64,000 nucleotides of DNA. Source: Mobula hypostoma (taxonomy: Eukaryota). This document shows positions 955-64,000 of the stretch, piece after piece (position 1 is the stretch's first letter; every line of letters begins with the position of its first letter). The DNA lies in assembly GCF_963921235.1 (NCBI RefSeq), contig NC_086108.1, positions 82,710,001 through 82,774,000 on the forward strand, given 5' to 3'. The position numbers and the translations under genes were made by a program. Below the pieces are notes generated by a model, which did no database searches, was not told the origin of the DNA, and saw nothing but the letters and a program-made list of their open reading frames with translations.

Positions 955-1100
955 AACACAAGATATGCTGGAAATCTAAAATAACACACACAAAAAAAAA
1001 CGCTGAACCCTTCCTGATGAAGGGTCTCGGCCCGAAGCATCAAGTATTTATTCCTCTTCATAGATGGCTCCTGACCAGCTCAGTTCCTCCACCATTTTCG
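955..1100 (+). mobile_element. Decayed Penelope-like terminal fragment with a degenerate hammerhead (CTGATGA-AGGGTCTCGGCCC-GAAG)
   Basis: Same terminal sequence as the other PLE copies. GAAA is mutated to GAAG and stem I is lost. Confidence 0.65.
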
Positions 1101-1907
1101 GAGTAGCGAATGTAATGTATGATAATCTCTACCGACTTGCCCCTAGTCTCATTGATATTATCGACACTAACTTTTATTTTTTCAGTTAAACATTCCAGTT
1201 TGCTGTGGCTCTTTAGGTCTGTTGTTTGATTATTCAGAAGGGAACTGTGGGCATCAAACCATTCTAATGGAAGGAAGTACCAGACAGCTGTAAGTCCAGG
1301 ATATAGCAAATGACAGATGACGGTGCATTTTTCCTCCTTAAAGTCATCTTGATGGTGGTGACTTCATGTTCCTCATGCTTCAGTTTTGTCCAACTTTTTG
1401 AGGAGATGTATATCATACCTATAACATGGAAGTTCATTAACTCATCATTTCCAGGATTGTGTTTTAGCCTTTGTTAAAACACAATGTTTTGCTGCCTTTT
1501 CTTTAATCTAAGGCAATACTCTAGATTTCAGTGAGTCTCAAATGATCCCCATTTACCACCTACTTAGGTTTTCACATTTTCACTTAAAATGGCTTCAGGG
1601 CCTTTATTGTTTGTTCATTCTAATTCTGCTAAAATTTATCCCAGATTACCTAAAAATTTGCATGGCATTGCAAAAGCAGGGGAGTGAGATAAATTGGATA
1701 CTGTGAAAAATAAATGACACAGATACATTGAGCTGAACAGCTTCTTCCTTTACCATATTATTATATGAATGCTCATCTTCCATCCTATGGTCATGCACTC
1801 AATTAATCTTAATTTCCTCTTGAGAGAAAGGTTGACCCCAGGGCTGAGCTAATAAACCGTAAATCAGCAACTTATTTTACATGTTTGCTCCTATTTCTAT
1901 CTACAAT

Positions 1908-1956
1908 TTTCTATTCTTAACATCTTTCTATCCTTAACATCTTTCTATCTTTAACA
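1908..1956. repeat. Short tandem repeat, about 17-bp unit (TTTCTATCCTTAACATC), nearly 3 copies
   Basis: Read directly from the sequence. Confidence 0.7.
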
Positions 1957-2159
1957 AAGAAGACTGACAGCTCTCTGGGAGTAAGAACAAGCTAGATTGT
2001 ACTTTATTATGATTCACCAGTGTATCTCAGAAGGGAGCAAAAATGAAAATATTAAAAAATCTCTCTCCTCACATTCTTCTCTTGGCCTCTTGCATTGCTG
2101 AAGTTGCTGATCCATGCTGGAGTATGGTTCTCAGATAGAACATAAACAAATGCTTATTT

Positions 2160-3540
2160 GAAGTTGCACGTACTGATGATCTGTGCTGATCAACTGGCTG
2201 GAGTGTTTGCTGATGTCTTTAACATGTCTTGTCGGCAGTCTGCTTCAATAGGCTTCAATTATACCAGACCCAAGAAGAACATGGTAATCTGCCTCAATGA
2301 CTATCATCCAGTAGCACTTATATCCACTGTGATGAAGTGCTTTGAGAAGCTGGTGATGAAGCAAATCAACTTTTGGCTGAGAAATGACTTGGATCAACTC
2401 CAATATGCCCACAATCGGTCAACAGCAGATACCGTTTCTTTGGCTCTTAACTCAATCCTGGAACATCTAGACAGCAAAGATGGATAAATTAGGGTGCTTT
2501 TCATTGATTGCAGCTTGGCATTCAATACCACCATCCCCTCAAAACTAATCAATAAGCTTCAAATCCTAGGCCTTCATAACTCCTTGTGCAACTGGATCCT
2601 TGATTTCCTCTCTTGCAGACCCCAGTCAGTTCAGATTGGCAACAACATCTCCTCCACAATCACCATCAGCACAGGTGCAGATCCAGGCTGTGTGCTTAGT
2701 CTCCTGCTCTACTTGCTTTATACTTATGACTGTGAGGCTAACCACAGATCCAATGCCATATTTAAGTTTTGTGACGACACCACTGTCGTTGGCCAAATCA
2801 AGGGTGGTGATGAATCAGTATATAACAGGGAGATGGAAAATCTGCCTGAGTGGAGCCACAACAACAAACTCTCACTCAACGTCAGCAAGACCAAGACAAT
2901 GATAATTGATTTCAAGAGGAAACTGGTCCATGAGCCAGTCCTTGTTGGGGGATCAGAGATGGAAAGAGTAACAACTTTATATTTCTGGATGTTATCTTTT
3001 CAGGGGACCAGTCCTTTCCTGGGTCCAGCACTTCAGTGTCACTATGAAGAATGTAAGGCAGTACCTCTACTTTCTTAGAAGTTTGTGTAGATTTGGCATG
3101 TCATCTGAAACTTTGACAAACTTTGATAGATGTGTGGTGGATAGTATATTGACTGGTTGTATTACAGCCTGGTGTGGAAACATCAATGCCCTTGAATGGA
3201 AAAGCCTACAAAAAGAAGTGAGTACTGTTCTGTCCATCAAGGGTAAAGCTCTCCCTAACATTGAGCACATCTACATGGAGCACTATCCTAGGAAAGCAGT
3301 ATCCATTATCGAGGGCCCCCACCATCAAAGCCATGCTTTCTTCTCGCTGCTGCCATCAGGAAGAAGGCACAGCAGCCTCAGATCCCACACCACCACGTTC
3401 AGGAACAATTAGTACCCCTCAGCCATCAGGCTCTTGAACTGGAGGGGTTAACTTCACTCAATTTCACTTGCCCAGCACTAAACTATTCCCACTGAACTGG
3501 ACTCACTTTCAAGTTTTTTCATCTCATGTTCTCGATATTT
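2160..3540 (+). mobile_element. Rex1/Babar-clade LINE, 5'-truncated, reverse transcriptase pseudogene
   Basis: Frameshifted ORFs with [56 protein letters not shown] and C-terminal HAFFSLLPSGRR. Confidence 0.9.
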
Positions 3541-3969
3541 GGTGGTAATCACTTTATAAATGCAACAACTAACGTTACTTTGCCTGAGGATAAAGGATAG
3601 GAAAAGTCCCTGGTCATCATTAGCATCTCTATATTCTAACAATAAAATTCTAACACATGCTAATATTTTTAAATTAACTTATTTAAGTACTTGAAGTGCT
3701 TTAGGTCTGCTCAGCTTCAAAACAGCAGTACCCGTACTTTGATAAACTAGTATCAAACATTTAAAATCAAATAAAATGCTCAATAATTGCTGGGCTGGAA
3801 TTTGAAAGATCAATACTGTTAGTAAATCAGCCAATTGAATGATAATGAACATGGTTTCAGTCCCCAGAGGAGTGGTTTCCACTCAAAGCCATTGTTGTTC
3901 AGATGTGAAAAATTTTCTGTGACACCGTTTTGTTGCAAACAGATACTGTGGAGCAACACAATGAGTTTG

Positions 3970-4079: not shown

Positions 4080-4471
4080 AAATGATGTTATTATTATTCT
4101 TATCAATCTTGGTGCAGTACAGTATAGATGTAATTTTCTGTGCTGTCTTTCTCAGTACTCAGTTAATTTGAGTTGAGCTTTCTTGTATACCATCTGTGGT
4201 ATGGAATATCTCTCTAAATAAATTGGGAGCCTGTTAAATGCAACATTTTCATGGAGTACTTTATTTTAAGAAAAATATTGATTAATGAGAAAAAGACATA
4301 AAGGTAACCTGAAGCTACTAAAATAATAATAAAAACTGCAGATGCTGGTAATCTGAAATAAAAACAGAAAATATTGGAAACAGAGTGGGTCAGGCAACTG
4401 CTTTGGATAAAGAAATAGGACAAGACTTTCAACCAGAGTCATGCAATTATTAGTTATGCCCATGCAATCTA

Positions 4472-5003: not shown

Positions 5004-5059
5004 TTATAAGGCGATAGAACATAGAAACAGAGTCAACTATTTGACCCATCAGTTCTGAT

Positions 5060-5490: not shown

Positions 5491-7143
5491 GAATCAGAAT
5501 CAGAATCAGGTTTATTATCACCTGCATGTGTCGTGAAATTTGTTAACTTAGCAGCAGCAGTTCAATGCAATACCTGATATAGAAGAATAAATAAATAAAT
5601 AAAGTAAACTAATTGCAGTATATGTATATTGAATAGCTTAAAAGTTGTGCAAAACCAGAAATAATATGTATTAAAAAAGTGAGGTGGTGTTCACAGATTT
5701 AATGTCCATTTAGGAATCGGATGGCAGAGGGGAATCATGCTCCTGAATCGCTGAGTGTGTGCCTTCAGGCTTCTGTACCTTCTATCTGATGGTAACAGTG
5801 AGGAAAGAGCATGCCCTGGGTGCTGGGGGTCCTTAATAATGGATGCTGCCTTTCCGAGACACCACTCTTTGAAGATATCCTGGGTACTTTGTAGGCTAGT
5901 ACCCAAGATGGGGCTGACTAAATTAATGACTTCCTGCATCTTCTTTCGGTCCTGTGCAGTTGCACCCTCCACCCCCCACCTCCCTCCGCCCCCCCCCCCC
6001 ACCATTCTAGGCAGTAATGCAACTTGTCAGAATACTCTCCATGGTACATCTATAGAAATTTTTGAGTGTTTTTGTTGAAATGCCAAATCTCTTCAAACTC
6101 CTAATGAAGTGTAGCCGCTGTCTTGCCATCTTTATATCTGCATTGATATGTTAGTGTCCTCAGAGATCTTGACACCCAGGAACTTGAAGCTGCTCATTCT
6201 CTCCAGTTCTGATCCCACTGTGAGGATTGGCATGACCTGCTTCGTCTTGCCCTTCCTGAAGCCCACAATCAGCTCTTTTGTTTTACTGACGTTGAGTACT
6301 AGGCTGTTGCTGTGACACCACTCCACTAGTCGGTATTTCTCACTCCTGTATGCCTCTCATCTCCATCTGAGATTCTACCAACAGTGGTTGCAAATCAGCA
6401 AATTTATAGATGATAAACGCAAACAACAGGAATTCTGCAGATGCTGGAAATTCAAGCAACATACATCAAAGTTGCTGGTGAACGCAGCAGGCCAAGCAGC
6501 ATCTATAGGACTGAAACGTCGACTGCGCCTCTTCCTATAGATGCTGCTTGGCCTGCTGCGTTCACCAGCAACTTTGATGTATGTTAATTTATAGATGATA
6601 TTTGAGCTGTGCTGAGCCACACAATCATGGGTATAGAGAGAGTAGAGTGGTGGGCTAAGCACACACCCCTGAGGTGCACCAGTGTTGATCGTCAGCGAGG
6701 AGGAGATATTATCACCAATCTGCACAGATTGTGGTCTTCTGGTTAGGAAGTCAAGGATCCAATTGCTGAGGGAGGTACTGTAGCTTCTCAATCAGGATTG
6801 TTGGAATGATGGTGTTAAATGTTGAGCTATAGTTGATGCACAGCATCCTGACATAGGTGTTTGTATTGTCCAGGTGGTCTAAGGCTGTGTGAAGAGCCAT
6901 TGAGATGGTGTCTGCCATTGACCTATTGTGGCGATGGGCAAATATTAGTGGGTCCAGGTCCTTGCTAAGGCAGGAGTTCAGTCTAGTCATGACCAACCTC
7001 TCAAACCATTTCATCACTGTAGATGTGAGTGTTACTGGGTGATAATCATTAAGGCAGCTCACATTATTCTTCTTGGGCACCAGTATAATTGTTGCCTTTT
7101 TGAAGCAAGTTGGAACTTCCACCCGTAGCAGTGAGAGGTTGAA
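5491..7143 (-). mobile_element. Rex1/Babar LINE, 3' part (split by the CR1 insertion and carrying a PLE insertion at 6416-6585)
   Basis: (CTGATT)n 3' tail at about 5491-5510 on the minus strand. RT motifs FNLSLLRVEVPTCFKKATII, LNDYHPVTLTS and [10 protein letters not shown]. Confidence 0.92.
6416..6585. mobile_element. Fold-back mini Penelope-like insertion with a 15-bp TSD
   Basis: TSD AATTTATAGATGATA at 6401-6415 and 6586-6600. Perfect 53-bp inverted arms at 6458-6510 and 6533-6585. The loop holds the 3' half of the hammerhead (CTGAAACGTCGACTG). Confidence 0.9.
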
Positions 7144-7676
7144 GAAGGTAGTGATAGGGGACTCGATAGTTAGAGGTGCAGATGGAAGGTTCTGTGGTCG
7201 TGACAGAGAATCCAGGATGGTATGTTGCCTCCCGGGTGCCAGGGTCAAGGATGTCTCTGATCGATTGCATGACATTCTGAAGTGGGAAGGTGACCAGCCA
7301 GATGTCGTGGTGCACATCGGTACCAATGACATAGCAAGGAAGAGTGAAGAGGTCCTGGACAGTGAGTATAGAGAGCTTGGTAGGAAGTTGAAAAGCAGGA
7401 CCTCAAGGGTGGTAATCTCAGGATTGCTACCTGTGCTAGGTGCCAGTGAGGGTAGGAATAGGATGCTCTGGAGGAGGAACAAGTGGCTGAGGAACTGGTG
7501 TAAGGGGCAGGGTGTCAGATTTCAGGATCATTGGGACCTCTTCTGGGGCAGGTGGGACCTGTACAAGACAGACGGGTTACACTTGAACCACAGGGGGACC
7601 AATATCCTTTCAGGGAACATACATCAAAGTTGCTGGTGAACGCAGCAGGCCAAGCAGCATCTGTAGGAAGAGGTGC

Positions 7677-7712
7677 AGTCGACGTTTCAGGCCGAGACCC
7701 TTCGTCAGGACT
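7677..7712 (-). ncRNA. Minimal type I hammerhead ribozyme
   Basis: The minus strand reads AGUC-CUGACGA-AGGGUCUCGGCCU-GAAA-CGUC^GACU. Core CUGANGA/GAAA, GUC cleavage triplet, stem I and stem II are all present. Confidence 0.85.
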
Positions 7713-8045
7713 AACTGAAGGAAGAGTGAGTAAGGGATTTGAAAGCTGGAGGGGGAGGGGGAGATCCAAAATGATAGGAGAAGACAGGAGGGGGAGGGAT
7801 GGAGCCGAGAGCTGGACAGGTGATAGGCAGAAGGGGATACGAGAGGATCATGGGACAGGAGGTCCGGGAAGAAAGACGTGGGGGGGGTGACCCAGAGGAT
7901 GGGCAAGAGGCTGCTGCGTTCACCAGCAACTTTGATGTATGTTGCTTGAATTTTCAGCATCTGCAGAATTCCTGTTGTTTGCGTTTAAATTCACTACTGC
8001 GAAGCCTCTTCCGGTGATGCCTACACCGAAGAAGTTTAGATCCTT

Positions 8046-8081
8046 AGTCCTGACGAAGGGTCTTGGCCTGAAACGTCGACT
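8046..8081 (+). ncRNA. Minimal type I hammerhead ribozyme, predicted cleavage after 8077
   Basis: AGUC-CUGACGA-AGGGUCUUGGCCU-GAAA-CGUC^GACU. Confidence 0.85.
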
Positions 8082-8238
8082 GCACCTCTTCCTACAGATG
8101 CTGCTTGGCCTGCTGCGTTCACCAGCATCTTTGATGTATGTTGCTTGAATTTCCAGCATCTGCAGAATTCCTGTTGTTTGCGTTTAAAATCGTTTCAGGG
8201 AGGTTTGTTAGTGCTATTGGGGAGGCTTTAAACTAGAT

Positions 8239-11170
8239 TTGCAGGGGGATGGGAACCAGTGTGCCAGAGCTGACAGTGTGGCTGGGGTGAAAATAAATGA
8301 TGTTGAAAATTTAAGCAAATCTGCTGATAGAAAGGTTGTGAGTGGTGGTAAAAATCTTCTGAGGTGTATATATTTCAATGCTAGGAGTATTGCGGGGAAG
8401 GCGGATGAGTTGAGGGCATGGATTGACACGTGGAATTATGATGTTGTAGCAATTAGTGAAACTTGGCTACAGGAGGGACAGGACTGGCAGCTTAATATTC
8501 CAGGGTTCCGATGTTTCAGATGTGATCGAGGCAGAGGAATGAAAGGTGGGGGAGTAGCATTGCTTGTTAGGGAAAATATTACAGCAGTGCTCAGGCAGGA
8601 CAGATTAGAGGGCTTGTCTACTGAGTCCTTATGGGTGGAGCTGAGAAACAGGAAAAGTATGGCCACATTAGTGGGATTGTATTACAGACCACCCAATAGT
8701 CAACAAGACTTGGAAGAGCAAATCTGCAGAGAGATAGCAGGCAACTGCAGGAAACATAAAGATGTGGTGGTAGGGGATTTTAATTTTCCATACATTGATT
8801 GGGACTCCCATACTGTTAGGGGTCCAGATGGTTTAGAGTTTGTAAAATGTGTTCAGGAAAGTTTTCTAAATCAATATATAGAGGGACCAACTAGAGGGGA
8901 TGCAATATTGGATCTCCTGTTAGGAAACGAATTAGGACAAGTGACAGAAGTCTGTGTAGGGGAGTACTTTGGTTCCAGTGATCATAACACATTAGTTTCA
9001 ATTTGATCATGGACAAGGATAGATCTGGTCCTAGGCTTGAGGTTCTGAACTGGAAGAAGGCCAAATTTGAAGAAATGAGAAAGGATCTAAAAAGCGTGGA
9101 TTGGGACAGGTTGTTCTCTGGCAAAGATGTGATTGGTAGGTGGGAAGCCTTCAAAGGGGAAATTTTGAGAGTGCAGAGTTTGTATGTTCCTGTCAGGATT
9201 AAAGGCAAATTGAATAGGAATAAGGAACCTTGGTTCTCAAGGGATATTGCAACTCTGATAAAGAAGAAGAGGGAGTTGTATGAAATGTATAGGAAACAGG
9301 GGGTAAATCAGGTGCTTGAGGAGTATAAGAAGTGCAAGAAAATACTTAAGAAAGAAATCAGGAGGGCTAAAAGAAGACATGAGGTTGCCTTGGCAGTCAA
9401 AGTGAAGGATAATCCAAAGAGCTTTTACAAGTATATTAAGAGCAAAAGGATTGTAAGGGATAAAATTGGTCCTCTTGAAGATCAGAGTGGTCGGCTTTGT
9501 GCGGAACCAAAGGAAATGGGGGAGATCTTAAATAGGTTTTTTGCGTCTGTATTTACTAAGGAAGCTGGCATGAAATCTATGGAATTGAGGGAATCAAGTA
9601 GTGAGACCATGGAAACTGTACAGATTGAAAAGGAGGAGGTGCTTGTTGTCTTGAGAAAAATTAAAGTGGATAAATCCTCAGGACCTGACAGAGTGTTTCC
9701 TCGGACCTTGAAGGAGACTAGTGTTGAAATTGCGGGGGCCCTGGCAGAAATATTTAAAATGTCGCTGTCTACGGGTGAAGTGCCAGAGGATTGGAGAGTG
9801 GCTCATGTTGTTCCGTTGTTTAAAAAAGGATCGAAAAGTAATCCAGGAAATTATAGGCTGGTGAGTTTAACGTCAGTAGTAGGTAAGTTATTGGAGGGAG
9901 TACTAAGAGACAGAATCTACAAGCATTTGGATAGACAGGGGCATATTAGGGAGAGTCAACATGGCTTTGTGCGTGGTAGGTCGTGTTTGACCAATCTGTT
10001 GGAGTTTTTCGAGGAGGTTACCAGGAAAGTGGATGAAGGGAAGGCAGTGGATATTGTCTACATGGACTTCAGTAAGGCCTTTGACAAGGTCCTGCATGGG
10101 AGGTTAGTTAGGAAAATTCAGTCGCTAGGTATACATGGAAAGGTGGTAAATTGGATTAGACATTGGCTCGATGGAAGAAGCCAGAGAGTGGTGGTAGAGA
10201 ATTGCTTCTCCGAGTGGAGGCCTGTGACTAGTGGTGTGCCACAGGGATCAGTGCTTGGGTCCATTGTTATTTGTCATCTATATCAATGATCTAGATGATA
10301 ATGTGGTAAATTGGATCAGCAAGTTTGCTGATGATACAAAGATTGGAGGTGTAGTAGACAGTGAGGAAGGTTTTCAGAGCCTGCAGAGGGACTTGGACCA
10401 GCTGGAAAAATGGGCTGAAAAATGGCAGATGGAGTTTAATACTGACAAGTGTGAGGTATTGCACGTTGGAAGGACAAACCAAGGTAGAACATACAGGGTT
10501 AATGGTAAGGCACTGAGGAGTGCAGTGGAACAGAGGGATCTGGGAATACAGATACAAAATTCCCTAAAAGTGTCGTCACAGGTAGATAGGGTCGTAAAGA
10601 GAGCTTTTGGTACATTGGCCTTTATTAATCGAAGTATTGAGTATAAGAGCTGGAATGTTATGATGAGGTTGTATAAGGCATTGGTGAGGCCGAATCTGGA
10701 GTATTGTGTTCAGTTTTGGTCACCAAATTACAGGAAGGATATAAATAAGGTTGAAAGAGTGCAGAGAAGGTTTACAAGGATGTTGCCGGGACTTGAGAAA
10801 CTCAGTTACAGAGAAAGGTTGAATAGGTTAGGACTTTATTCCCTGGAGCGTGGAAGAATGAGGGGAGAATTGATAGAGGTATATAAAATTATGATGGGTA
10901 TAGATAGAGTGAATGCAAGCAGGCTTTTTCCACTGAGGCAAGGGGAGAAAAAAACCAGAGGACATGGGTTAAGGGTGAGGGGGGAAAAGTTTAAAGGGAA
11001 CATTGGGGGGGCTTCTTCACACAGAGAGTGGTGGGAGTATGGAATGAGCTGCCAGACGAGGTGGTAAATGCGGGTTCCTTTTTAACATTTAAGAATAAAT
11101 TGGACAGATACATGGCTGGGAGGTGTATGGAGGGATATGGTCCGTGTGCAGGTCAGTGGGACTAGACAGA
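8239..11170 (+). pseudogene. CR1 ORF2 (APE endonuclease + reverse transcriptase) with about 3 frameshifts
   Basis: YFNARSI, ISETWL, VGDFNFP, SDH, PGNYRLVSLTS, QHGFVRGRSC, YMDFSKAFD, GVPQGSVLG and FADDTK, spread over ORFs 8239-9006, 9003-10289 and 10231-11067. Confidence 0.93.
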
Positions 11171-11248
11171 AAATGGTTCGGCACAGCCAAGAAGGGCCAA
11201 AGGGCCTGTTTCTGTGCTGTAGTTTCTATGGTTTCTATGGTTTCTATG

Positions 11249-11795
11249 TCCTTGAATACTCCTGCTAGTTGATTGGCACAGGTTTTCAGAGCCTTACCAG
11301 GTACTCCATCAGGACCTTCCGCCTTGAGAGGGTTCACTCTCTTCAAAGATAGCCTAACGTCGGCCTCTGAGACAGAGATCACAGGGCCACTGGGATCTTC
11401 ACAGATGCAGTTATGTTCTCCCTTTCAAAGTGGGCATAGAAGGCATTGAGTTAATCTGGTAATGAAGCATTGCTACCATTCATGCTATTGGGTTTCATAT
11501 TGTAGGAAGTAATGTCTTGCAAACCTTGCCAGAGTTGTCGTACATCTAATGTCTCCTCCAACATCATTTGAAATTGTCTCTTCGCCCTTGAAATAGCCCT
11601 CCGCTAGTCATACCTGGTTTTCTGGTACAGACCATAGTCGCCAGCCTTGAATGCCACAGATCTAGCCTTCAGCCTCCTGGTTCATCCACGATTTTGGATT
11701 TGGGAACGTACAGCAAGTCTTTGTAGGCACACACTCATCTACACAGGCTTTAACGAAGTTGGTAACAACTGCAGCATACTCATCCAAATTTGAAG
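11249..11795 (-). mobile_element. Rex1/Babar LINE, upstream continuation of the 5491-7143 copy
   Basis: GPDGVPGKALKTCANQLAGVFKDI joins in frame to FNLSLL at about 7143 once the CR1 is removed. Confidence 0.9.
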
Positions 11796-15384: not shown

Positions 15385-15650
15385 AAATACAAACTCTCCT
15401 CTCCTCTCAGATTCCTTCATCTCCAGCTGTTACATCTCCAACCCACCTGGCTTCAGCTATCACTTCCTAGTTATCCTTCTTCCCGTCCACCCCCGCCCCT
15501 CACCTTTCTCCAGTGCTGAAAAAGGGTTGCGGCCAAAAACAATGACTGCTTGTTCACTTCCATGGATGCTGCCTGACTGCTGAGTTTCTCCAGCATTTTG
15601 TGTCTGTGTTACTTTGGATTTCCAGCCTCTGCAGATTGCCTTGTGTTAAA
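15385..15650 (+). mobile_element. Decayed PLE 3' terminus with a degenerate hammerhead
   Basis: Pyrimidine-rich UTR, then CAGTGCTGAAAAAGGGTTGCGGCCAAAAACAATGACTG and GATGCTGCCTGACTGCTGAGTT. Confidence 0.7.
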
Positions 15651-20300: not shown

Positions 20301-20399
20301 AAAACATGAGGCACCAATTCATATATTGCAAATCTTTTTTTAAAATAAGTTTTAATTTTCATTTTGATGAAAACCACTTTGTTCCACTTCATTAACAAC

Positions 20400-21080
20400 A
20401 AGGAAAGTTCTTCCAGGTAAGGCAACATTTCACCTGTGAATCTGCTAGGGTCGTCCATTGTGTCTGCTGCTCCTGATGCGGTTTCCTCTACGTTGGTAAG
20501 ACCCGCCGTAAATTGGGGACCGCTTCGTCGAGCACCTCCACTCCAACCACCAACAGAACTTCCTGGTAGCCAAACATTTTAATTCTGATTCCCATTTCTG
20601 TTCCAATATGTTGGTCCATGGCCTCCTCTTGCGCCATGATGAGACTACCCTCAAGGTGGAGGAGCAACACGTTATATTACATCTCTGTAGCCTCCAGCCT
20701 GATGGCATGAATATCAATTTCTCCTTCTGTTAAAAATATTCCCTCCCCTCTTCTTCTGCTCCCACTCTGGCCTCTTACCTCTTCTCATCTGCCCATCACC
20801 TCCTCCTGGATCCCCACCTTCTTCCCTTTCTCCCATGATCCACTCTCCTCTCCTATCAGATTTTTTCTTCTCCAGCCCTTTACTTTTCCCACCCACCTGG
20901 CTTCACTTATCACCTTCTCTCTATCTTCCTTCCCCTCACCTACCTTTTTATTCTGGTGTCTTCCCCCTTCCTTCCAATCCTGAAGAAGAGTCTCAGAGAT
21001 GCTGTCTGACCTGCTGCGTTCCTCCAGCATTGTGCCTGTATTACTTTGGATTCCCTGCGCCTGCAGAATTTCTCGTGTTG
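20400..21080 (+). mobile_element. Neptune-type Penelope-like element 3' part: GIY-YIG endonuclease remnant, UTR and terminus
   Basis: Translates to FQVRQHFTCESARVVHCVCCS*CGFLYVGKTRRKLG..RFVEHL..VAKHFN..LKVEEQHVILHLCSLQPDGMNI, a Cys-rich GIY-YIG domain typical of Neptune. Confidence 0.85.
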
Positions 21081-21626
21081 ATGAAGGTAAAGTGGGGTAT
21101 ACCACACCATGCAAGATTTCTCTGTTTGGAGTAGGGACAGTGGATTTTGAAAAAGTATTGGTGTTGACATTTATCTTATAAATTAATTCTGAAAGCAGGA
21201 CTCCCCTTATAATTGACAGTGATAAGCAGTCGATTTTGAAAAAGGGTCCTACATAGCAAGGCTGTTCCATATATGAACTCCTGATTTCGTGGAGATTCTG
21301 TAGGTAATGCTTCTATACATTTATAAAAAAGAAACATCTGCAATTATATAGCACCATTCATTACGTGACTACGTGACACTCAACAATTAATGAAATACTA
21401 TTGAAGTTGGGTTAGTATTATAATGAAAAGATTGTTGCTGTCAAATTTGGACATAGCAAGCTCTCACAAACAAGAATGCAACAAAGATCATACAATTTGT
21501 TGACTAAGGCATAAAATTGACCAGGGCACGAGACGTAAATTTAAAACTGTGCGACAAAATGTTTCACTGAGAGCAAATGGGGCCCTGGATTACAAAGAAC
21601 CTGAATGGTATTTTTCTATGTTGATG

Positions 21627-21728
21627 CAAACATGAGGAAATCTACAGATGCTGGAATTTCAAGCAGCACACATAAAAGTTGCTGGTGAACGCAGCAGGCA
21701 GGGCAGCATCTCTAGATGCTGCCTGGCC
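21627..21728. mobile_element. 102-bp fold-back PLE terminus insertion with a 14-bp TSD
   Basis: TSD TTTCTATGTTGATG at 21613-21626 and 21729-21742. Internal hairpin GGCAGCATCT-CT-AGATGCTGCC. Confidence 0.85.
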
Positions 21729-24118: not shown

Positions 24119-25559
24119 AGCACAGCACCTGGGGCAGTCTTCATAGTCTCAGCACCATGGAGAGAGGAGTGACCACTGGGGAGAGCAAGTGAAATCAGTT
24201 CTCGCCTCAGAACCCGACACTCTGTCGTTTCAGTCTACCTGGGCTGGTGTATAAATTGACCAAACAACAGAACAGCGAAAAGTAAGGCTCTCTTAGTACG
24301 AATAACACATTTATCCTGAATGGAATGGAATGTTTTGTCCTTTAAGATGGCTCAGGTTTGCAACTACACTCTTGACTTACCAAAGAGTCCTAGCGGAAAG
24401 ATTTTTCCTGTAAAGAAAGTGCAAGTTGCAAACGATTTCAATGCCCTTCATTTGAGCAAGTGCATTTCTGAACTTTGAGCATTATCCCATTTACTGCAGT
24501 AAAAAAAATATCCACAAATTACATCAGTGGCAAAATGTTAATATAAAAAGTTGGAACATATGAAACCTTTCTGAAAGCATGATTACTTTGTACATCGCAT
24601 TAAAGAGGGTGGCCTCTGTAGACTACATTTAGTAACAGTCAAAGAAATCAAATCTAGGAAAAAAATCCCTTGTGTTTCAGGGAAATAGGACAGTGAGGTG
24701 ACAGACGCTTCATTATTTTTCAAGAAGGCTCTCAGATCAGCTCTTTGCACTAACTAACAAAATAAGGTTATGGACAACAATGTATTTATTAAAGACTGGA
24801 AAAAAAGAAATATTAAGAAAATATAATATCATCAATACTGTTTTTGAAGAGAAGGATCCACCTTCATGAAAACACTCATCTTAGGAATTCTTTCTAAACA
24901 CATTTGTCACACTGAAAAGGCTTTAAAAGGGGAATTTCATCTTTATGATGAAAGTGACACCACTTCAGGATCATTTTTAAATAGATTTTAAAAATATTAT
25001 TTAATAAGTATAATGCTGTATACTGAAATGTCAGCATTATTATTTTCAAAGCGTTTTTTTCTGTGTGGCTTTTCATCATTACCCCAAATATATACTATAC
25101 TGCATATTTAACAAAAGTATTAGAGCTTAATGGAAAAAAAGAGCATGGAACTATGACCGAGAGGTTGAAAAAAATCTTTTACATTCTATTCCTGTTCTGA
25201 AACATCTCTGTTTTCTTTATTTAACAAGGCTGGGAAAACAGTTGTTAGTCTGTAGTATCAGAAGACCCATATACATAGGTTGATGTTAGTTGGCCACATA
25301 GATTTACCTCTTCCAAAAGCAAAATATTAAATTGCTGCAGCTACTGGAAACCTGAGAAGTCGGATATCCTCAGCAGATCATTCAGCATCTGTAAAGAGAA
25401 AAACAGAGTTTGTGTTTTAGGTTTACAACCTTCCATGAAAAGCCATCAACTCAAAACAGTGAGTGGAGTTATACCTTCCTGTAACTGGTAGTTCTGTAGA
25501 AAGCAGCCAGCATTCAATGTCCAGTGTGCCTCAATCATCTACTGTATATCATCTACTAC

Positions 25560-25685: not shown

Positions 25686-26429
25686 GCATTTTGATATGCC
25701 ATCGCCCAAAATGTCCTGGTGGTCTGCTACAAACATCTAACTTTCTCCTTTGCCTAGCAGTGGAGAACTGAAGAGAGCAAATGAACTGGACTTTCTACCC
25801 TATATCAGGGAGTTCTGATATATGAATGAAACCTCATTCATCTCAATGGAGTTGCTGATTGTAGAAATGCCAAATGCAGGTTAGTGGCTGACTTATTTTA
25901 TTTTCTCCTCTTTTAGAGCATTTAGTTAAATTTTTGATATTTTAAAATGTTCTAATTATTTAAAAAATATATTTAAAATCACAAATCTTTCAAAATATAC
26001 CTAATCATCAGCAATATTAAAAAAAAATTAAAGAGCAACAATAGTTGGGCTCTCAGAATACACCGAGGGCAATCTAATCTTCGTGCATGATGCTCCTCAC
26101 GTGATGCCTCTTCACTGGACTAACCCGTCCAGAGACGTACAAATAGGCAGGAAAGGTGGTAGTAACTTATTTTGTTAACTCTGTTTCTCTTTCTACAGTT
26201 GCTGCCTGGCCAGCTGAGTATTTCCAGACTCATTCACATCTGGTTATGAAAAATAAAGAAGCCACTCAGCCTATGCCTTCACTCACTTGAATTATTTTTA
26301 ATCTGAACACCAATTCCAACCAAGTAACTTGCTGGTATCTTTTGATACCTTTAATATATCTCTTTGGGTAATATATGTTCTTTTCAATTTGAAAATGATG
26401 ATCTCAAATAGCTACAGAACCCTCCACAA

Positions 26430-26760
26430 GGGATTCTGCAGATGCTGGAAATCCAAAGCAACACACACAAAATGCTAGAATAACTCAATAGGTCAGGCAG
26501 GATTTATTGAGAGGAATAAAGAGTCGACATTTCAGGCCTAGACCCTTTATCAGGACTAGAAAGGAAGGAGGAAGAGGCTAGAATAAGAACGTTGGGGGAG
26601 GGAAAGGAATTCAAGCTGGCAAGTGATAGGTGAAACCAAGTTGGGGGGGAATCGTTAGAGGGTGGGGGAAGGTGGATTGATGTGAGTAGCTAGGAGGTGA
26701 TAGGTGGAAGAGATAAAGGGTTGGAGAAGAAGGAATCTGTTCAGACAGGAGAGTAGACCC
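26430..26760 (-). mobile_element. PLE terminus with a degenerate hammerhead (CUGAUAA)
   Basis: The minus strand reads AGTCCTGATAAAGGGTCTAGGCCTGAAATGTCGACT at about 26522-26557. Confidence 0.75.
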
Positions 26761-40719: not shown

Positions 40720-41272
40720 TGTTCTCATTCCGACATGCCAGTCCATGGCCTCCTCAAGTACTGTGATGAGGCCACACTCAGGTTGGAGGAGCACCACCTT
40801 AGATCCTGCTGGGTAGCCTCCAACCTGATGGCATGAACATCTATTTCTCTAACTTCTGGTAATTGCCCCAACCTTCACCATTCCCAATTCCTGTTTCCCT
40901 CTCTCTCCTTACCTCCTCACCTGCACATCACCTCCCTCCGGTGCTCCTCCCCCTTCCCTTTCTTCCATGGTCTTCTATCCTCTCCTATCAGATTCCCCCC
41001 CTCCAGCTCTTCATCTCTTCCACCAGTCAACTTCCCAGCTCTTTACTTCAACCCTCCCCCTCTCCCTATTTCACCTATCACCTACCGCTGTGTACTTCTT
41101 CCTCCCCTCTCCCCAACTTCTCCTCTTTCTTTCCAGTCCTGATGAAGGGCCTCGGCCCTAAGCGTCGACTGAATACTCTTCTCTATAGATGCTGCCTGGC
41201 CTGCTGAGTTCCTCCACCATTTTTTGTGTGTTGTTTTGGATTTCCAGCATCTGCAGATTTTCTCATGTTTGT
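40720..41272 (+). mobile_element. Neptune-type PLE 3' terminus, hammerhead with a mutated GAAA
   Basis: CAGTC-CTGATGA-AGGGCCTCGGCCC-TAAG-CGTC-GACTG at about 41134-41171. Confidence 0.82.
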
Positions 41273-42289: not shown

Positions 42290-42772
42290 AAAAGTGGAGG
42301 AGCCATACCTTATATTCCGTCTAGATAGCCTCCAAGCTGATGGCTTGACCATCGATTTTGTGAACTTCCGGTAATTGCCCCCCCTCCCCGCCCCCATCAC
42401 CATTCCTCATTTCTGTTTCCATCTCACACCTTCTCTCCTTACCTGCCCATCACCTCCATGCTGGTGCTCCTCTTCCTTCCCTTTCATCCATGGTCTTCTG
42501 TCCTCTCATATCAGATTCCCCCTTATCCAGCCCATTATGTCTTTCACCAATTGACTTCCCAGCTTTTTACCTCACCCGCTTCCCCTCTCCTGGTATCACC
42601 TATCACCTTCTACCTTGTACTTCTTCCTTCCTCCTCCCCACCTTTTTACTCTGACTTCTCCCTTCCTTTCCAGTCCTGATGAAGGGTCTCAGCCTGAAAT
42701 ACCGACTGATTACTCTTTTCTATAGATGCTACCTGGCCTGCTGAGTTGCTCCAGCATTATGTGTGTATTGCT
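42290..42772 (+). mobile_element. Neptune-type PLE 3' terminus with a degenerate hammerhead
   Basis: VEEPYLIFRLDSLQADG and CAGTCCTGATGAAGGGTCTCAGCCTGAAATACCGACTG. Confidence 0.82.
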
Positions 42773-45139: not shown

Positions 45140-45592
45140 TTTACCATATCAGAAAACACCCCTGCCCCCCACCCTTCATTCTACTCAATGAATTTCTTTT
45201 GTCCTCCTCCTTCTCTTCCCTTCCTCTTCTTTCTTCCCTTTCTTCCATGGTGCTCCTCCACCTTCCCTTTTTTCCATCGTCTTCTATCCTCTGCTATCAG
45301 ATTCCCCCTCCTCCAGCCCTTTATATCTTTCACCAATCAGCTTCCCATCTCTTTACTTCACCCCTCCCTGTCTCTCAGTCTCACCTATCACCTACCACCT
45401 TGTTCTTCTTCCTTCCCTCCCCTCACCTTCTTACTCTGACCACATTTTTTTTCCAGTCCTGAAGAAGGGTCTCAGCCCGAAACGTCGACTGTTTATTCCT
45501 TTCCATAGACGTTGTCTGACTTGCTGAGTTCCTCCAGAATTTTGAGTATGTTGCTTTGGACTTCCAGCATCTGCAGTCTTTCTCGTGTTTGA
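45140..45592 (+). mobile_element. PLE 3' terminus
   Basis: Pyrimidine-rich UTR, hammerhead, and CTTCCAGCATCTGCAG..TCTCGTGTTT end. Confidence 0.82.
45454..45491 (+). ncRNA. Minimal type I hammerhead ribozyme, predicted cleavage after 45486
   Basis: CAGUC-CUGAAGA-AGGGUCUCAGCCC-GAAA-CGUC^GACUG, with a 5-bp stem I. Confidence 0.82.
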
Positions 45593-46639
45593 CCGTTTTT
45601 TTTTTGTCTCCTTTGAGTTCTGATGAAAGATCTTCAATCTGAAGCAATAACTCCGTTTCACTTCCCACAGATGTGGCCTAGCCTACTTATTATTTCTAAC
45701 ATTTTCTGTTTTTATTTTAGATTTCCAGTATTTGCAGTTTTTAAAAAAAATTCATTCTATTAAAGAGTGAATCATATTTTATGTCATAAATTACCTGAAG
45801 GGTTTCTGCAACAAGCTCAACGGCAACTTTTCAGCTGGGGTTGGATCAGTTCCAACCATGCATGGGAAAGAACAGGAAAGTAGGACTATGGAGACACAAG
45901 GGACTGTGGATGATGAAATCTGGAATTGGTTAAGCAGATATATGTGAGGAAAGAACTTGTTAACATTTGAAGTTGAAACCCTGCAGTAGGACTGAATGTG
46001 GAGAGGTGAGATGGTCAGCAACAGAGAGGAGAAGGTGAGACACAAGAAGGGATTCCAGGGTGACTGGCAGATGGTGGAGGGGTGTAAGGTGACAGGAAGG
46101 TAGTTCTAGCTAGGGGGGATAAGCAGAGGTGGAGTTGGAAGAGTGAGGTAGGTGAAAGATGGAGGCAGCTGAAGAAAAAGAGGAGAAAGAAAAGAAACAA
46201 AGATGGAGGAAAGTGGGGGAGGGGAGTACGAAGATGGGAGACATTTGCTGGAGCGAGATAAACAGGAACACAAAGTGCTTCCAGAGTTCAGTTCAGCTAA
46301 GTAAAAGAGGTGAGAATTAGAGGGGAGGGGGATGGAGTGGACTACAGCTGGATCCATTTGAGGTGAGGGAGGTGGCGGAATCTGTGTGTGAAGTGGGTCA
46401 TTGGAGCTAGGAAGGGAATGGGACAAAGATGATTGAAAGGAAGCTGGGGTGGTGGTGGGGGAGGTTGGGAACAGGGAAACAAGTGGGAAGACTAGAGGAT
46501 CCGGAGAGGGGAGAAAAGGGTTGGGAGGATTGGGAAAAACGGTGTTTGACTAAAATTGGAAAATGAATGGTGGTGAAGTGACGATAGATACATGGCTATC
46601 ATAGTGATTCTTGGAGTAGGGCTAAGTGATTAGATCTTC

Positions 46640-51612: not shown

Positions 51613-52772
51613 AAACACAAGAGATTGGATACCCTGAGCAAACACACACAATATGCTGGAGGAACTCAGCAGATCAAACAGCATCAATGGAAATGGAAAC
51701 AGTCGATGTTTCAGGCTGAGACATTTCCTCAGGGCTAAAAGACAGGGGGAAGATTCCAGAATAAGAAGGTGAGGACAGTGGAAGGAGTAGAAGCTGGAAG
51801 GTGATAGGGAAGCCAGATTGGTGAGGGAGGGGGATGAAGTAAGAAGCCGGGAGGTGAAAGGCGGAAAAAGTAAAGGGCCGGAGAAGAAGGAATCTGATAG
51901 GACTGGAGAGTGGATCATGGGAGAAAGGGAAGGAAGTGGGCCACCAGATGGAGGTGATAGGCAGATGAAGAGGTAAGAGGCCAGACTGGGGAATTGAAGA
52001 AGAGGAAGGGGGCAGGGGCAAAATGTACCTGAAGTTGGAGAAATCGATGTTCATGCCATCAGGTTGGAGGCTACATAGATGGAATATGAAGCATTGTTCT
52101 CCAACCTGAGAGTGGTCTCATCATGGCAGAAGAGGAGACCATGCATCAACATGTCAGAATGGGATTGGAGACAGGAATTAAAATGGTTATTTGCTGGAAA
52201 ATTGCTCTTTTTGCACATAGAGGTCCATCCCCACTAAGCTTCTTCCTGGCACTTAACCCTGCAAGTGACAGAAGAGCTACACCCGCCCATTCCCTTCCTC
52301 CCCTACCTCCATTCAATACGCCAAACAGGCCTTCCAGGTGAGGCAAAATTGTGCTCCCGATGTAGTCTTCTCTACATTGGTGAGACCTGATGTAGTTTGA
52401 GGGAGCGCTTTGTTGAGCACATCAGCTCCATCTGTAAAATGTAGGATTTCCCTGTAGCCAACCATTTTAATTGTTCTCCCCATTTCCATTCTGACATGGC
52501 CTCCTTTTCTGCCATGATGAGGCCATTCTCAGGTTGGAGAAGCAACACCTCACATTACATCTAGGTAGCCTCCAACCTGATGGCATAAGCATTAAATTCT
52601 CCAGAGTTCCCCCCACCCCTCCCCTTCCCTCTTCTTCCAATTTCCCACTCTGGCCTCTTAACTCTTCTCCTCACCTTCCTACCACCTCCCTCTGCTGCCC
52701 GGCCTCCTTTACTTTCTCCCAAGGTCCACCCTCCTCTCCTATCAGATACCTTCTTCTCCAGCCCTTTTCTTT
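51613..52772. mobile_element. Neptune-type PLE: divergent pair (minus about 51613-52210, plus about 52215-52772)
   Basis: Both halves carry the same GIY-YIG C-terminus (LRLEKQHLTLHLGSLQPDG) and UTR in opposite orientations. The plus half has LYIGET and RFVEH. Confidence 0.8.
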
Positions 52773-52774
52773 TC

Positions 52775-54950
52775 AAGATCATAAGACCATAAGACATAGG
52801 AGCTGAATTAGGCCAGTTAGCCCTTCGAGTCTGCACCACCATTCCATCATGGCCGATACCGCATCCCACTCAACCCCATACACCTGCCTTCTGGTCATAT
52901 ACTTTGATGCCCTGCCTGATCAGGAAACAATCAATAACTGCCCTAAATATAGCCATGGACTTGGCCTCCACCAACATCTGTGGCAGAGCATTCCACAGAT
53001 TCACTACCCCCATGCTAAAAAAATTCCTCCTTACCTCTATTCTAAAAGGTCACTCCCTCAATTTTGAGGCTGTTCTGGATACCCCACCATAGGAAACACC
53101 CTCTCCACATCCACCCTATCTAGTCCTTTCAACAATCAGTAGGTTTCAATGAGATTCCCCCCACCTCCAACCCTTCTAAATTCTAGTGAGTACAGGCCCA
53201 AAGCTACCAAACCCTCCTCATATGTTAACCCCTTCATTTCTGGAAACATCCGCATGAACCTCCTCTGGACTTTCTCCATTGGCAACGCATCCTTTCTGAG
53301 ATATAGAGCCCAGAACTATTGATAATACTCCAAGTGCAGCCTGACTAATGTCTTATAAAGGCTCAGCATTATCTCCTTCCTTTTATATTCCATTCCCCTT
53401 GAAATAGATGCTGGCATTGCATTAGACTTCTTTAACATAGACTCAACCTGTAACTTAACCTTCTGGGAGTCTTGCACGAGGATGTTTGAAGCTTTCTCCC
53501 CATTTAGGTAATAGCCTTCACCATCGTTCCTTTGTCTAAATGCATTTTCATACATTTCCCAACACTGTGTTCCATCTGCCCTTTTTTGCTCATTCTTCCA
53601 ATTTCTCTAAGTCCTGCTGCAATTGCATTGCTTCCTCAGCACTACCTACCCCTCCACCTATCTTTGCATCATCAGCATACTTTGCCACCATGCCATAAAT
53701 TCCATTATCCAAATCATTGACAAGTAATGTGAAAAGTAGTGGTACTAATACTGACCCCTGAGGAATGTGACTAGTCACCGGCAGCCAGCCAGAAAAGACC
53801 CCTTTTATTCCCATTTGCTGCCTCCTGCCTGTCAGCCATTCCGCCATCCATGCCAGTATCTGTCCTGTAATGCCACAGGATTTTATCTTGTTAAGCAGCC
53901 TCCTGTGTGGCATCTTATCAAATACCTTCTGAAAATCCAAGTAAATGACATCTACTACTTCACCTTTGTCTACCCTGCTTGTTACTTCCTCAAAGAACTC
54001 TAACCAATTTGTCAGGCAAGATTTCCCTTTACAGAAACCATGCTGACTTTAACTTACTTTACCATTAGTCTCTAAGTACCTCAAAACCTCACCCTTAATA
54101 ATAAACTCTAACACTTTCCCAATCACTGAGGTTAGGCTAACTGCCCTATAATTTCCTTTCTTTACCTTCCTCCCTTCTTAAAGAGTGTTTTTGACTTGAC
54201 CCTGTTTTTTTTTCATGAGGCCGAGTGGTTAGCTCGACACTCAACCCAGCATGGATGGAAAGCGTGCACAAGGGGTGGCCCGACTTGGATTTGAACTTGG
54301 GAGCCTTCGCTCCGGAGTCCGGTGCTGATGCCATTACGCCACCAGCCAGCCATTTTCTAGTGATCAAATATCAACTCTCGCCTCCCTTTTACTCTTTATA
54401 TAACTAAAGAAACTTTAGGTACCCTGCTTTAGATTATTAGCTTGTCTGCCCTCATATTTCATCTTTTCCTTTATTGGAGTTCCCCATTACAAATGTGTCA
54501 TTACCTTTATTACATGCCGTTTCAGGCTCCCTTTGCAATGTTAAACCCACATCTTGGCTACTATTTGGAGGCTTATATATGATTCCCATAATGTTTTTTT
54601 TATCCTTGCAATTTCTTAATGGACATTGAATCTTTGGACACTACCTCACTTTTTTAATATACAATATTTCTGTTTTTGCACATTAAAAAATTATTATACA
54701 TAATTGATTTTATTTATCTGCTAGCTTATGTACTACTTTGAACTGCTGCTGCTAAGTTAACAAATTTCACATCTCATGCTGGTGATAATGAACCTGATTC
54801 TGATTCTGATTCTGACATTCTCTGACCCCGTATCACCTTTTTCTAAAGATGTAATTCCATCTCTTACCGACAGAGCCACACCACCGCCTGTGCCTTACTG
54901 CCTATCCTTTTGATAGAAAGTATATCCTTTGATATTAAGCTCCCAACTAT
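52775..54950 (-). mobile_element. CR1 LINE ORF2, internally deleted, with a nested SINE and a Rex 3' tail (about 54620-54815)
   Basis: MDFQKVFDKMPH, PQGSVLVP, KYADDAKIGG and LYKTLVRLHLEY. CR1 tail at about 52776-52800. Confidence 0.88.
54188..54350 (-). mobile_element. Second copy of the tRNA-derived SINE at 49151-49346, with a longer linker and truncated 3' end
   Basis: Shares GGACTCCGGAGCGAAGG, the B box and GGGTTGAGTGTCGAGCTA..ACTCGGCCTC. Confidence 0.85.
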
Positions 54951-57597: not shown

Positions 57598-57730
57598 AAA
57601 CACAAGAGATTCTGCAGATGCTGGAAATTCAGAATGACACACAAAAAATGCTGGAGGAACTTTCAGGTTAGGCAGTATCTATGGAGAGGAATAAAGAGTT
57701 AACATTTTGGGCTGAGACACCTCATCGAGA
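57598..57730 (-). mobile_element. PLE terminus fragment
   Basis: AAACACAAGAGATTCTGCAGATGCTGGAAAT..GCTGGAGGAAC. Confidence 0.7.
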
Positions 57731-57754
57731 CAGTTCATGTGTGTGTTAGACTAA

Positions 57755-62289: not shown

Positions 62290-62575
62290 AAACCTGAGTC
62301 TAGGATATGAGGGCATAGCCTCAGAATAGAGGAATATCTTTAGCCAGAGAATGGTGAGTCTGTGGAATTCGTTGCCACATACAGCAGTGGTGACCACGTC
62401 ACTGGGTATACCTAAAGCAGAGGTAGTGAGGTTCTTGATTAATAAAAGTATCAAAAGTTATGAGAAGGCAGGAGAATGGGATTGAGAGGGAAAATAAATC
62501 AGCCATGATGGAATGGAAGAGCAGACTCAATGAGCTGAATGGACTATTTCTGCTCCTATATCTCATGGTCTAAAT
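62290..62575 (+). mobile_element. CR1 3' end fragment
   Basis: SQRMVSLWNSLP remnant and a CR1 3' UTR. Confidence 0.75.
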
Positions 62576-63539
62576 TGTAGCCACTTCAGATGAAGTGACT
62601 TGCCAGATGTGCTCTAAATATAATTCCACAAGCAAAAATTGAGAAGGCTGCAAAATCAGAAGTCTGCATAGCATCATAAATGGATTCAGGTGCATGTTTA
62701 ATATGGGATTGTTAACCCACTACTTTCAGTCAAATGCTAATTTATGGGCTCAGCAGTGTCCTGAACAGATTCCTGTAGAGCGCATGCTTCTCATCCACTC
62801 TGAGTCATTTCATGTTTCAGAAACTAGCACTAACTTAGCCTGGCATTGTTCAACTTATTTAGACTGCTCTAATCTGCTTTTATTGAACTGGTCCCTGGAT
62901 TCAAACTTTTTCCGATAAGTCTGGATTTCCAAATCTCCGCGGATTTTGAGTGTTTGTTTATCAAAGTAGCCTTTAGAAAAAGGGCTTACTCTTTAAGATG
63001 AAAAAAAATGTGGGAAGCTAATGCAGAGACTTTCATGTCTATAGCGTACTCGCTGTCCCTAAGCTCTGCCGGAGCAGCTGGGCTGTCCTCTGTTTCCTCA
63101 GGGGGATTATCAGCCCCTCAGCCCATAGCACTCTGCATACAATGGGAAATATGACAGCTCACTTAATCGCTTGACTCCCTAATCCACACAGATTTATTGG
63201 GATTTATCATTTTATCACGGCTTAGTAAATACTTTTCCTTATGCTTTTTATTGTGAATATATAGTTAGTAAAGCAACCTTCTGAATGCTGCTCTGTGCTT
63301 TTTTGGGGTTGCTAGTGTCAATGCTTTGATGGAGTTACAGAAATGAATCTACCTCTGAGTATCAGGAGATGCTGTCACTAACATTCAGAAGAGTTTGTTT
63401 CAAATTCATACGCAGGGAGGCTTGGATATCTCCATAATTAGTGAGAGCAATATTCATGGAGAGTTAGTTATGTACCTGGCACTAAAGTATTTAAAAATAT
63501 TTTGGGCTGAGGTGGTTACTATTATGAAAACCAGTTTAG

Positions 63540-63785
63540 ACCAGAAGACCATTAGACGTATGAACAGAGTTAGAGCATTTGACCCATCGAGTCTGCTCCA
63601 CCATACAATCAGGGGTTATTTTTATTCCCCTCAACCCTACTCTCCTGCCTTCTCCCCAGAACCTTTGATGCCCTTACTAATCAAGAACACATCAACCGCG
63701 GCTTTAAATACACCCAGTGACATAGCCTCCACAGCCACCTTTGGGAACAAATTCTACAGATTCACCACCCCGTGGCTAAGAAAAT
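63540..63785 (-). mobile_element. CR1 3' end fragment
   Basis: Reverse-complement CR1 3' UTR (GACCCATCGAGTCTGCTCC..CAGATTCACCACCC). Confidence 0.75.
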
Positions 63786-63804
63786 TAATTTAATATTGAA
63801 ATAT

Positions 63805-64000
63805 AACAAACAGCAGGAATTTTGCAGATGCTGGAAATTCAAGCAACACACATCAAAGTTGCTGGTGAACGCAGCAGGCCAGGCAACATCTCTAGGAAGA
63901 GGTACAGTCGACGTTTCAGACCAAGACCCTTCGTCAGGACTCAGCCTGAAACGTCGACTGTATCTCTTCCTAGAGATGCTGCCTGGCCTGCTGCGTTCAC
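63805..64000. mobile_element. Fold-back PLE terminus insertion running off the window end
   Basis: Inverted arms at 63865-63919 and 63946-64000. Confidence 0.85.
63906..63941 (-). ncRNA. Minimal type I hammerhead ribozyme
   Basis: The minus strand reads AGUC-CUGACGA-AGGGUCUUGGUCU-GAAA-CGUC^GACU. Confidence 0.8.

Follow-up and report, generated by a model that had tools for sequence, protein, structure and literature searches.

What is the short motif that recurs throughout a 64,000-nt stretch of the Mobula hypostoma genome (contig NC_086108.1, positions 82,710,001 to 82,774,000; hereafter the window, numbered from its first letter), which element carries it, and is it still used as a ribozyme? 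A sequence-only reading of this DNA had proposed minimal type I hammerhead ribozymes in the termini of Penelope-like elements (PLEs). According to our analysis, the copies are very probably 5'-truncated 3' ends (pseudo-long terminal repeats, pLTRs) of a highly amplified PLE family that bears the known minimal hammerhead of type I. Cutting by this motif is predicted to require a dimer or the help of a protein, and the dispersed copies are probably idle. The minimal hammerhead of PLE termini was published in 2014 (PMC4209133), and the family described here is a further one of that kind.

The motif and its carrier

The motif was searched with an ungapped Hamming scan, for which the minus-strand copy at 7677-7712 served as the query, and with nhmmer. 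Its positions are counted from the A of AGTC; cutting is predicted between nucleotides 32 and 33, i.e. at 8077/8078 in the copy at 8046-8081, where the sequence-only reading had correctly placed it. The scan detected 17 matches to the 36-nt motif at ≤13 mismatches, namely 15 whole copies and two halves located at inversion junctions (6489 and 63924), while 50 Markov shuffles yielded none with ≤12 mismatches and, with ≤13, 0.02 per window. The recurrence noticed earlier (about 14 copies) was thereby confirmed; each of the eight positions listed as decayed holds a copy, and the four copies listed as intact are rightly located and possess the core, the palindrome and both stems.

The architecture comprises helix I (5 bp), CUGANGA, an extra A, helix II (4 bp) and GAAA-CG-UC, without helix III. 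The core/stem reading of the 15 copies supports a minimal type I hammerhead in which a self-complementary ACGU replaces helix III. An extra nucleotide follows A9 in 15/15 copies, and 83% of the stem cells are paired in register versus 18-46% when slid; pair 10.1-11.1 is mixed (G-C in six copies, G-U in seven, other in two). All 12 core positions (CUGANGA, GAAA, U16.1 and H17) are kept in 6/15 whole copies and the core is changed in nine, the ACGU palindrome is kept in 5/15, and the core, the palindrome and both stems together in 4/15. These four are (i) the young-subfamily copy (N7=C, G10.1-U11.1) at 7677-7712 (minus strand), within the inverted arm of an insertion at 7617-8192, (ii) a second copy of the same subfamily at 8046-8081 (plus strand), with no untranslated region (UTR) upstream, (iii) an older-subfamily copy (G10.1-C11.1) at 45455-45490 (plus strand), and (iv) the copy at 63906-63941 (minus strand), which lacks the outer pair of helix I, has a weak helix II with three G-U pairs, and adjoins, in head-to-head fusion, a half-copy on the plus strand that starts at about 63937. 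The core/stem reading was combined with the scan and folding for the first two, with folding for the third, and with profile fragments for the fourth. In two further minus-strand copies the core is intact and the stems are broken: helices I and II at 35603-35638, and the stems together with the palindrome at 51701-51736.

These features are shared with the minimal hammerhead ribozymes (min-HHRs) of metazoan PLE pLTRs (described by Cervera and De la Pena 2014, PMC4209133), which are likewise of type I, lack helix III, and have a palindromic 15.2-16.2 segment and an extra nucleotide after A9; they too occur mostly as dispersed single copies from truncated PLEs, with opposite-strand pairs 100-700 bp apart. 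Many animals in that paper's table have an identical core and palindrome. In contrast, helix II has 4 bp here versus 7-8 bp in the motifs of schistosomes, and position 11.1 is often U. Judged from its sequence, the motif would thus be the known minimal type I hammerhead of PLE termini, and self-cutting is predicted. The motif pattern was absent from the viral contigs and prokaryote genomes searched.

The PLE origin is supported by reverse transcriptase (RT) and GIY-YIG endonuclease remnants upstream of the motif, by inverted arms and by target duplications. In the roughly 900 nt before the motif at 35603-35638 (minus strand), a frameshifted alignment covers a PLE RT (C-terminal half), a C-x4-CxxC linker and a GIY-YIG domain with an internal CxxC. 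This longest coding remnant (35965-36862, minus strand) was identified by translation and by tblastn of full-length relatives against the window, whose matches extend from the RT into the endonuclease over 36862-35965. A stretch of 80 residues within it (36111-36350) matched 321 proteins at E≤0.001; the top two, 63-65% identical, come from predictions for the stingray Hypanus sabinus and a further match from the skate Leucoraja erinacea, so that a batoid host is likely. Pfam analysis of six long relatives revealed RVT_1 in five and GIY-YIG in five. The window's own PLE remnant gave no Pfam match, and word-based protein searches using window fragments returned no matches.

The C-x4-CxxC linker and the CxxC were read in the remnant itself, and the His pair region of the CCHH motif near 20570. 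A linker of the form CX2-5CxxC marks Neptune and Nematis and is common also to Naiad (PMC8557442). The Cys-rich endonuclease noted earlier, ascribed there to a Neptune-type element, is supported as one of Neptune/Nematis type, and by this linker, common to Nematis and Naiad, the family would be assigned to the Neptune/Nematis type. Its resemblance to the EN+ (endonuclease-bearing) PLEs of these clades (Craig et al. 2021, PMC8557442) comprises the C-terminal GIY-YIG with CX2-5CxxC linker and CCHH, inverted 5'-truncated arms, a tail, and a hammerhead in the pLTR. In contrast to them, the clear-boundary insertions found here lie in LINE (long interspersed nuclear element) sequence, with duplications of 9-15 nt, and not in microsatellites.

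Endonuclease remnants were detected by tblastn upstream of six copies (35638, 20974, 51736, 41135, 42672 and 34905). One of these is a PLE 3' end at 20384-21085 (plus strand; tblastn and profile fragments), which consists of a GIY-YIG remnant (20384-20718), a spacer, a plus-strand motif near 20974 with an internal 31-nt deletion, and the tail. Endonuclease C-termini lie at 51958-52191 (minus strand) for the copy at 51701-51736, at 35140-35208 for that at 34870-34905, at 40723-40800 for that at 41135-41170, and at 42291-42470 for that at 42672-42707. Five other copies (779, 1010, 8046, 57732 and 63941) have no UTR at all and begin at the 5' edge of the motif. The earlier description of a pyrimidine-rich UTR that follows a GIY-YIG remnant therefore fits the former six copies and fails for the latter five. 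PLE pieces total about 7.8 kb, i.e. 12% of the window, in intervals set by hand from profile fragments.

It should be added that the protein XP_059828265.1, named 'mucin-2 isoform X2', is an in-frame plus out-of-frame read of this PLE family and thus an annotation artefact. In an endonuclease relative from another organism, residues ~197-215 continue into EEGLSPKR, like the peptide encoded by the motif; this protein hints at a similar hammerhead in that organism.

Abundance, subfamilies and decay

Contigs of four public sequencing runs, which show neither strand nor level, were placed on 7590-8220. DNA runs of two organisms contributed 113,346 and 101,829 contigs; these are contig counts and not a copy number, and they show that the PLE family is very large. 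The density of 15 copies per 64 kb compares with about 4,000 (coelacanth) and 9,000 (Xenopus) motifs per genome in the earlier survey (PMC4209133). The arms of the young subfamily are nearly identical (96/98 and 92/94 letters alike) and clearly unlike the old copies, which supports at least two waves of activity. Several waves and a high density had been claimed from the sequence, and the distinct subfamilies and the 15 copies in 64 kb agree with this.

As judged from the loose ends of contigs in two DNA runs, older subfamilies match the young one in the 36-nt block alone, and their flanks differ on both sides. Variants inside the motif fell at N7, 11.1 and the CpG at 15.2/16.2, none of them catalytic, among the 40 of 80 variants listed, a result that mapping favours. 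The consensus sequences of the young and old subfamilies differ at 3/37 positions of the motif (N7, loop II and 11.1) versus 19/50 downstream (p=0.002), and versus 11/36 in the better-conserved block 52-87 (p=0.019), and all 12 core positions are identical. Since the motif differs less than the downstream sequence, it is conserved in active lineages.

After insertion the situation is different. In ten old copies, non-CpG core positions were changed in 9/100 cases versus 42/358 in the flank (p=0.59), and CpG positions in 21/60. The core decays at the same rate as the flank, and old copies therefore decay neutrally once inserted. According to the core/stem reading, the decayed copies carry the following changes: A15.1 changed and the 5' strand of helix I lost (1010-1045, plus strand), three core changes (15512-15547, plus), G8 changed and the palindrome lost (26522-26557, minus), A6 and G12 changed (34870-34905, minus), G12 and A15.1 changed (41135-41170, plus), and U16.1 changed with loss of the CpG (42672-42707, plus). 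The copies at 779-814 (plus strand, with a short inverted arm at 731-772; scan and profile fragments) and 45958-45993 (minus strand; scan) are strongly decayed, and that at 57697-57732 (minus strand; profile fragments) is a decayed short copy beginning at the motif 5' edge. Very old relics of the terminus, under the scan threshold, were found at 25332-25433, 45608-45740, 4328-4408 and 26186-26231.

The equal decay of core and flank bears on whether some copies have been domesticated as host ribozymes that process host transcripts, a reading to which we give hardly any credence. The older copy at 45455 is fully intact and the family is abundant in run X7 (9,221 contigs placed), as such a role would allow; however, the RNA status of X7 is a guess and its contigs carry neither strand nor level. 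The spacing of the copies is also unfavourable: intact pairs on the same strand are 37 kb and 56 kb apart, whereas the close pair 7712/8046 is inverted, and its read-through would form a long hairpin. Cis cleavage of these genomic copies is unlikely because of the 37- and 56-kb distances.

Folding, insertion ends and possible use of the ribozyme

Only one of the four intact copies, the 38-mer at 45454-45491, has the hammerhead as its predicted lowest-energy fold. In 7712 and 8046, the young copies, position 7 is C and GACG (G5-G8) is predicted to pair with CGUC (C15.2-C17), which buries the core (-11.0 versus -7.0 kcal/mol for the hammerhead), and no hammerhead fold was predicted for the 63941 copy. 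The segment 8030-8100, suggested earlier as a cleavage construct, is a poor first choice because it is predicted to misfold. Dimer cleavage of minimal hammerheads is covered by a review (PMC6765202), and schistosome constructs of this type showed low activity as dimers (PMC4209133).

Several results weigh against the reading of the copies as hammerhead-bearing PLE ends. The energies of the 38-mers compared with shuffles gave z values of -0.93 to -1.38 for three copies and +0.48 for the fourth, none better. The active swapped dimer was never the lowest-energy dimer (-19.9 versus -24.2 kcal/mol for 45455, and -11.5 versus -32.1 kcal/mol for 8046). An Rfam scan of the window, proposed in the sequence-only reading, found no hammerhead family at E≤1, yet the motif was confirmed by the scan and the stems, and the missing helix III likely explains the absence of a match. 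Covariation in stems I and II, to which the same reading had partly tied its assignment, was not found: two-sided change affects 1/9 pairs, and 409/500 shuffles scored as high. This test had little power, with 16 related copies within the window, and a lack of covariation is what neutrally decaying copies are expected to give, so that the assignment is not refuted. The conservation between subfamilies could instead reflect a promoter, splice or protein-binding signal. In addition, 3/15 of the long 3' ends described below diverge earlier in the alignment, the profile itself stopping near position 143, and the 64-kb window contains neither a full pLTR-ORF-pLTR tandem (ORF, open reading frame) nor a full-length element.

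Some of these results would also be expected if the block were part of a PLE but no longer a working ribozyme here, and had persisted as a hammerhead-shaped signal for transcription start, splice acceptance or RT binding. We consider this unlikely, while giving it some weight. The stems without covariation and the predicted misfolding of the young copies are in line with it, as are the majority of U at 11.1 among contigs placed on the young copy (C, 21-31%) and the AG at positions 1-2, in the 5' strand of helix I, which follows a stretch of 76-92% pyrimidines in 8/9 copies. Moreover, hammerhead mutants of the anole element leave its insertion in vitro unaffected (PMC11167929). The same anole motif nevertheless cleaves once its protein is added, and only then (PMC11167929). 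A mere signal also accounts poorly for 12/12 core positions that stay the same between subfamily consensuses with diverged flanks, and for the presence of the same CUGACGA...CGUC variant in the published table (PMC4209133).

The insertion ends point in the same direction as the coding remnants, i.e. to a PLE. Among 27 profile fragments, 15 end at motif positions 137-142 and five at 95-107, and loose ends of public contigs at 8179-8185 fall at the same place as the long ends. These two sets of 3' ends lie about 40 nt from each other and represent the tail of PLEs (PMC11167929; PMC8557442), for which two internal start sites of the RT were mapped in the anole element (PMC11167929). At four insertions we found target duplications (9-15 nt), while 6/11 boundaries tested showed no duplication or merely a 6-nt word. 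These four are (i) a young two-armed fold-back at 6416-6585 with a half-motif, inserted in an L2-like element (15-nt duplication, 6401-6415/6586-6600; profile fragments and alignment), (ii) the young insertion at 7617-8192 in a CR1-like element (9-nt duplication, 7608-7616/8193-8201; alignment), in which an inverted arm (7617-7910) precedes a partial tandem, (iii) an insertion with an inverted arm at about 956-1113 (plus strand; 9-nt duplication; boundary analysis), which carries the 1010 motif, and (iv) a PLE tail without the motif at 21624-21716 (minus strand; 14-nt duplication; profile fragments and boundary analysis). In both young insertions the inverted arm stops at the short end and the main arm at the long end. 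Sub-threshold Rfam matches to microRNAs over the fold-back (6479-6562) were rejected as a hairpin artefact.

None of the 25 arms, whose starts were compiled by hand from profile fragments plus extensions, starts at the cut site; the window alone thus points to uncut RNA as the template. The 5' ends of five of the 15 arms that start between -60 and 70 fall at positions -1 to 6, a weak hint of clustering (p=0.0015 for a fixed window, p=0.075 for a freely chosen one).

A similar picture has been reported for the Anolis element Poseidon (PAc; Frangieh et al. 2024, PMC11167929), which also has two 3' ends, ~65-105 nt beyond the cut site, that enclose a tail of ~40 nt, gives no sign of cut RNA as a template, and contains an AUG within the motif. 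In the window such an AUG (A6-U7-G8) occurs in older copies, where it opens a frame of about 21 codons (45462-45527 and equivalents); the young copies have ACG and 45455 has AAG. In contrast to PAc, the family described here has the CX2-5CxxC linker, its core AUG opens only ~21 codons, and the main ORF likely begins elsewhere, as described below.

On the reading that we favour, of truncated PLE termini with a passenger ribozyme, and by analogy with the anole Poseidon work, the protein of the element would nick the target DNA and begin reverse transcription of the uncleaved RNA at an internal point ~65 or ~105 nt beyond the cut site. Early stops and strand switches would yield the short and two-armed copies, the ribozyme being copied along as a passenger; many short copies likely halt near the motif 5' edge because of an RNA end or a splice acceptor there. 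Selection would keep the motif only in master copies; there the ribozyme probably acts at a later step, trimming or inactivating the transcript, and would do so as a dimer or aided by a protein, as in the schistosome constructs and the anole element.

The role of the PLE hammerhead is called unclear in the literature. The present results extend a known motif to a lineage in which it is unusually abundant, and many dated insertion ends genome-wide would allow a strong test of whether cut RNA serves as the template and of what sets the helix I boundary. PLEs and retrozymes have been reported in one cartilaginous fish (bioRxiv 10.64898/2026.07.22.740005), and supplement file 2 of PMC4209133 has no shark, Callorhinchus or Leucoraja entry. 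Literature searches on the lineage or the motif returned no description of this family's motif, which the supplements of the preprint may list.

Several side observations concern the arrangement of the insertions. The region 6157-11300 is nested, with a minus-strand L2-like element split by the PLE fold-back at 6416-6585 and by a CR1-like LINE. The latter is nearly whole, with a GDSL-esterase ORF1 (about 7142-7616) and a frameshifted ORF2 (8212-11067), and is itself split by the PLE at 7617-8192. At 63806-64000 two motifs are joined head to head via a 2-nt microhomology at positions 1-3, forming a long perfect hairpin that extends past the window end. Another head-to-head pair of PLE arms, each extending into the endonuclease region, lies at 51624-52790, with a plus-strand endonuclease arm at 52224-52771; the plus arm is interrupted by a CR1-like insertion before its motif.

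The spacer and the 199-nt partial tandem

The pyrimidine-rich spacer upstream of the motif (220-300 nt) has intron-like ends. A donor-like site, at about 42371 in the 42672 copy, falls on the ORF stop codon (7/9 consensus letters in the best copy; GT in 5/6 copies that reach it), and the AG of helix I would be the acceptor. The AG and the pyrimidine letters also fit an initiator consensus, and a transcription start at the motif edge is an equal rival to a splice acceptor. Drosophila Penelope retains in its pLTR an intron that runs up to the 5' end of helix I (PMC2377424; PMC4209133). The acceptor-like site found here lies where the intron of the D. virilis element ends (Schostak 2008, PMC2377424); unlike that intron, the one in the window is a prediction, with a length of 220-300 nt, and would begin at the ORF stop codon.

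In the main arm of the young insertion (7911-8187) a 199-nt unit is repeated in part; this partial tandem has ~1.4 units and one motif, and 76/78 letters of the repeated part are alike. It contains 56 nt of post-tail sequence (7988-8043, plus strand), identified from contigs and the N-termini of relatives, which are likely the start of the element body. An ATG at 8017 reads MPTPKK, which resembles the N-termini of four relatives (MPTLK, MPTLR twice, and MPSLKK), and judging from this sequence the main ORF likely starts ~170 nt from the motif start. At 8044 the 56 nt are joined to the motif 5' edge, at the point that in the unspliced arm immediately follows a CAG; a template jump accounts for this junction no less well than splicing. 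A 21-nt pattern taken from these 56 nt matched a single metagenome locus (L001), bacterial DNA that is otherwise dissimilar to the window, and the match was rejected as a coincidence.

These ends could mean that the spacer is a retained spliceosomal intron reaching from the ORF stop codon to the inside of helix I. Splicing would then shorten helix I and toggle the ribozyme, the short copies would begin at the splice site, and the start of the ORF would have been joined there into the 199-nt unit, a retrozyme being born from a PLE. We regard this combined scenario as improbable. No spliced C-terminus was found among 198 related proteins, nor was a spliced product detected. The contig joints (15 of 662 listed) fail to separate splicing from truncation, and a loose end at 7711 (23 contigs, agreement 0.42; run X13, probably DNA) fits either.

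Still more doubtful, in our view, is that the short copies form a separate, non-autonomous retrozyme family spreading via ribozyme-cut circular RNA. Non-LTR retrozymes resemble them as short hammerhead-bearing units related to pLTRs (PMC7229834; bioRxiv 10.64898/2026.07.22.740005), and the preprint derives retrozymes from pLTRs; the 199-nt partial tandem and the five short copies that begin at the motif 5' edge agree with such an origin. However, described retrozymes have canonical motifs in tandem arrays (PMC7229834), whereas the motif here is minimal and the window contains no tandem array with two whole motifs, the 199-nt tandem holding one. Furthermore, no arm begins or ends at the cut site, the 5' ends vary and reach up into the RT, and the extra 56 nt are covered ~30- to 100-fold less deeply than the pLTR, as measured by summed contig depth, which is not a copy number.

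Much of the remaining window is CR1- and L2-like LINE sequence, the labels being read from domains. An open frame of 214 codons is present at 31611-32255 (plus strand); it gave weak coiled-coil matches only and was assigned to no family by Pfam or Atlas.

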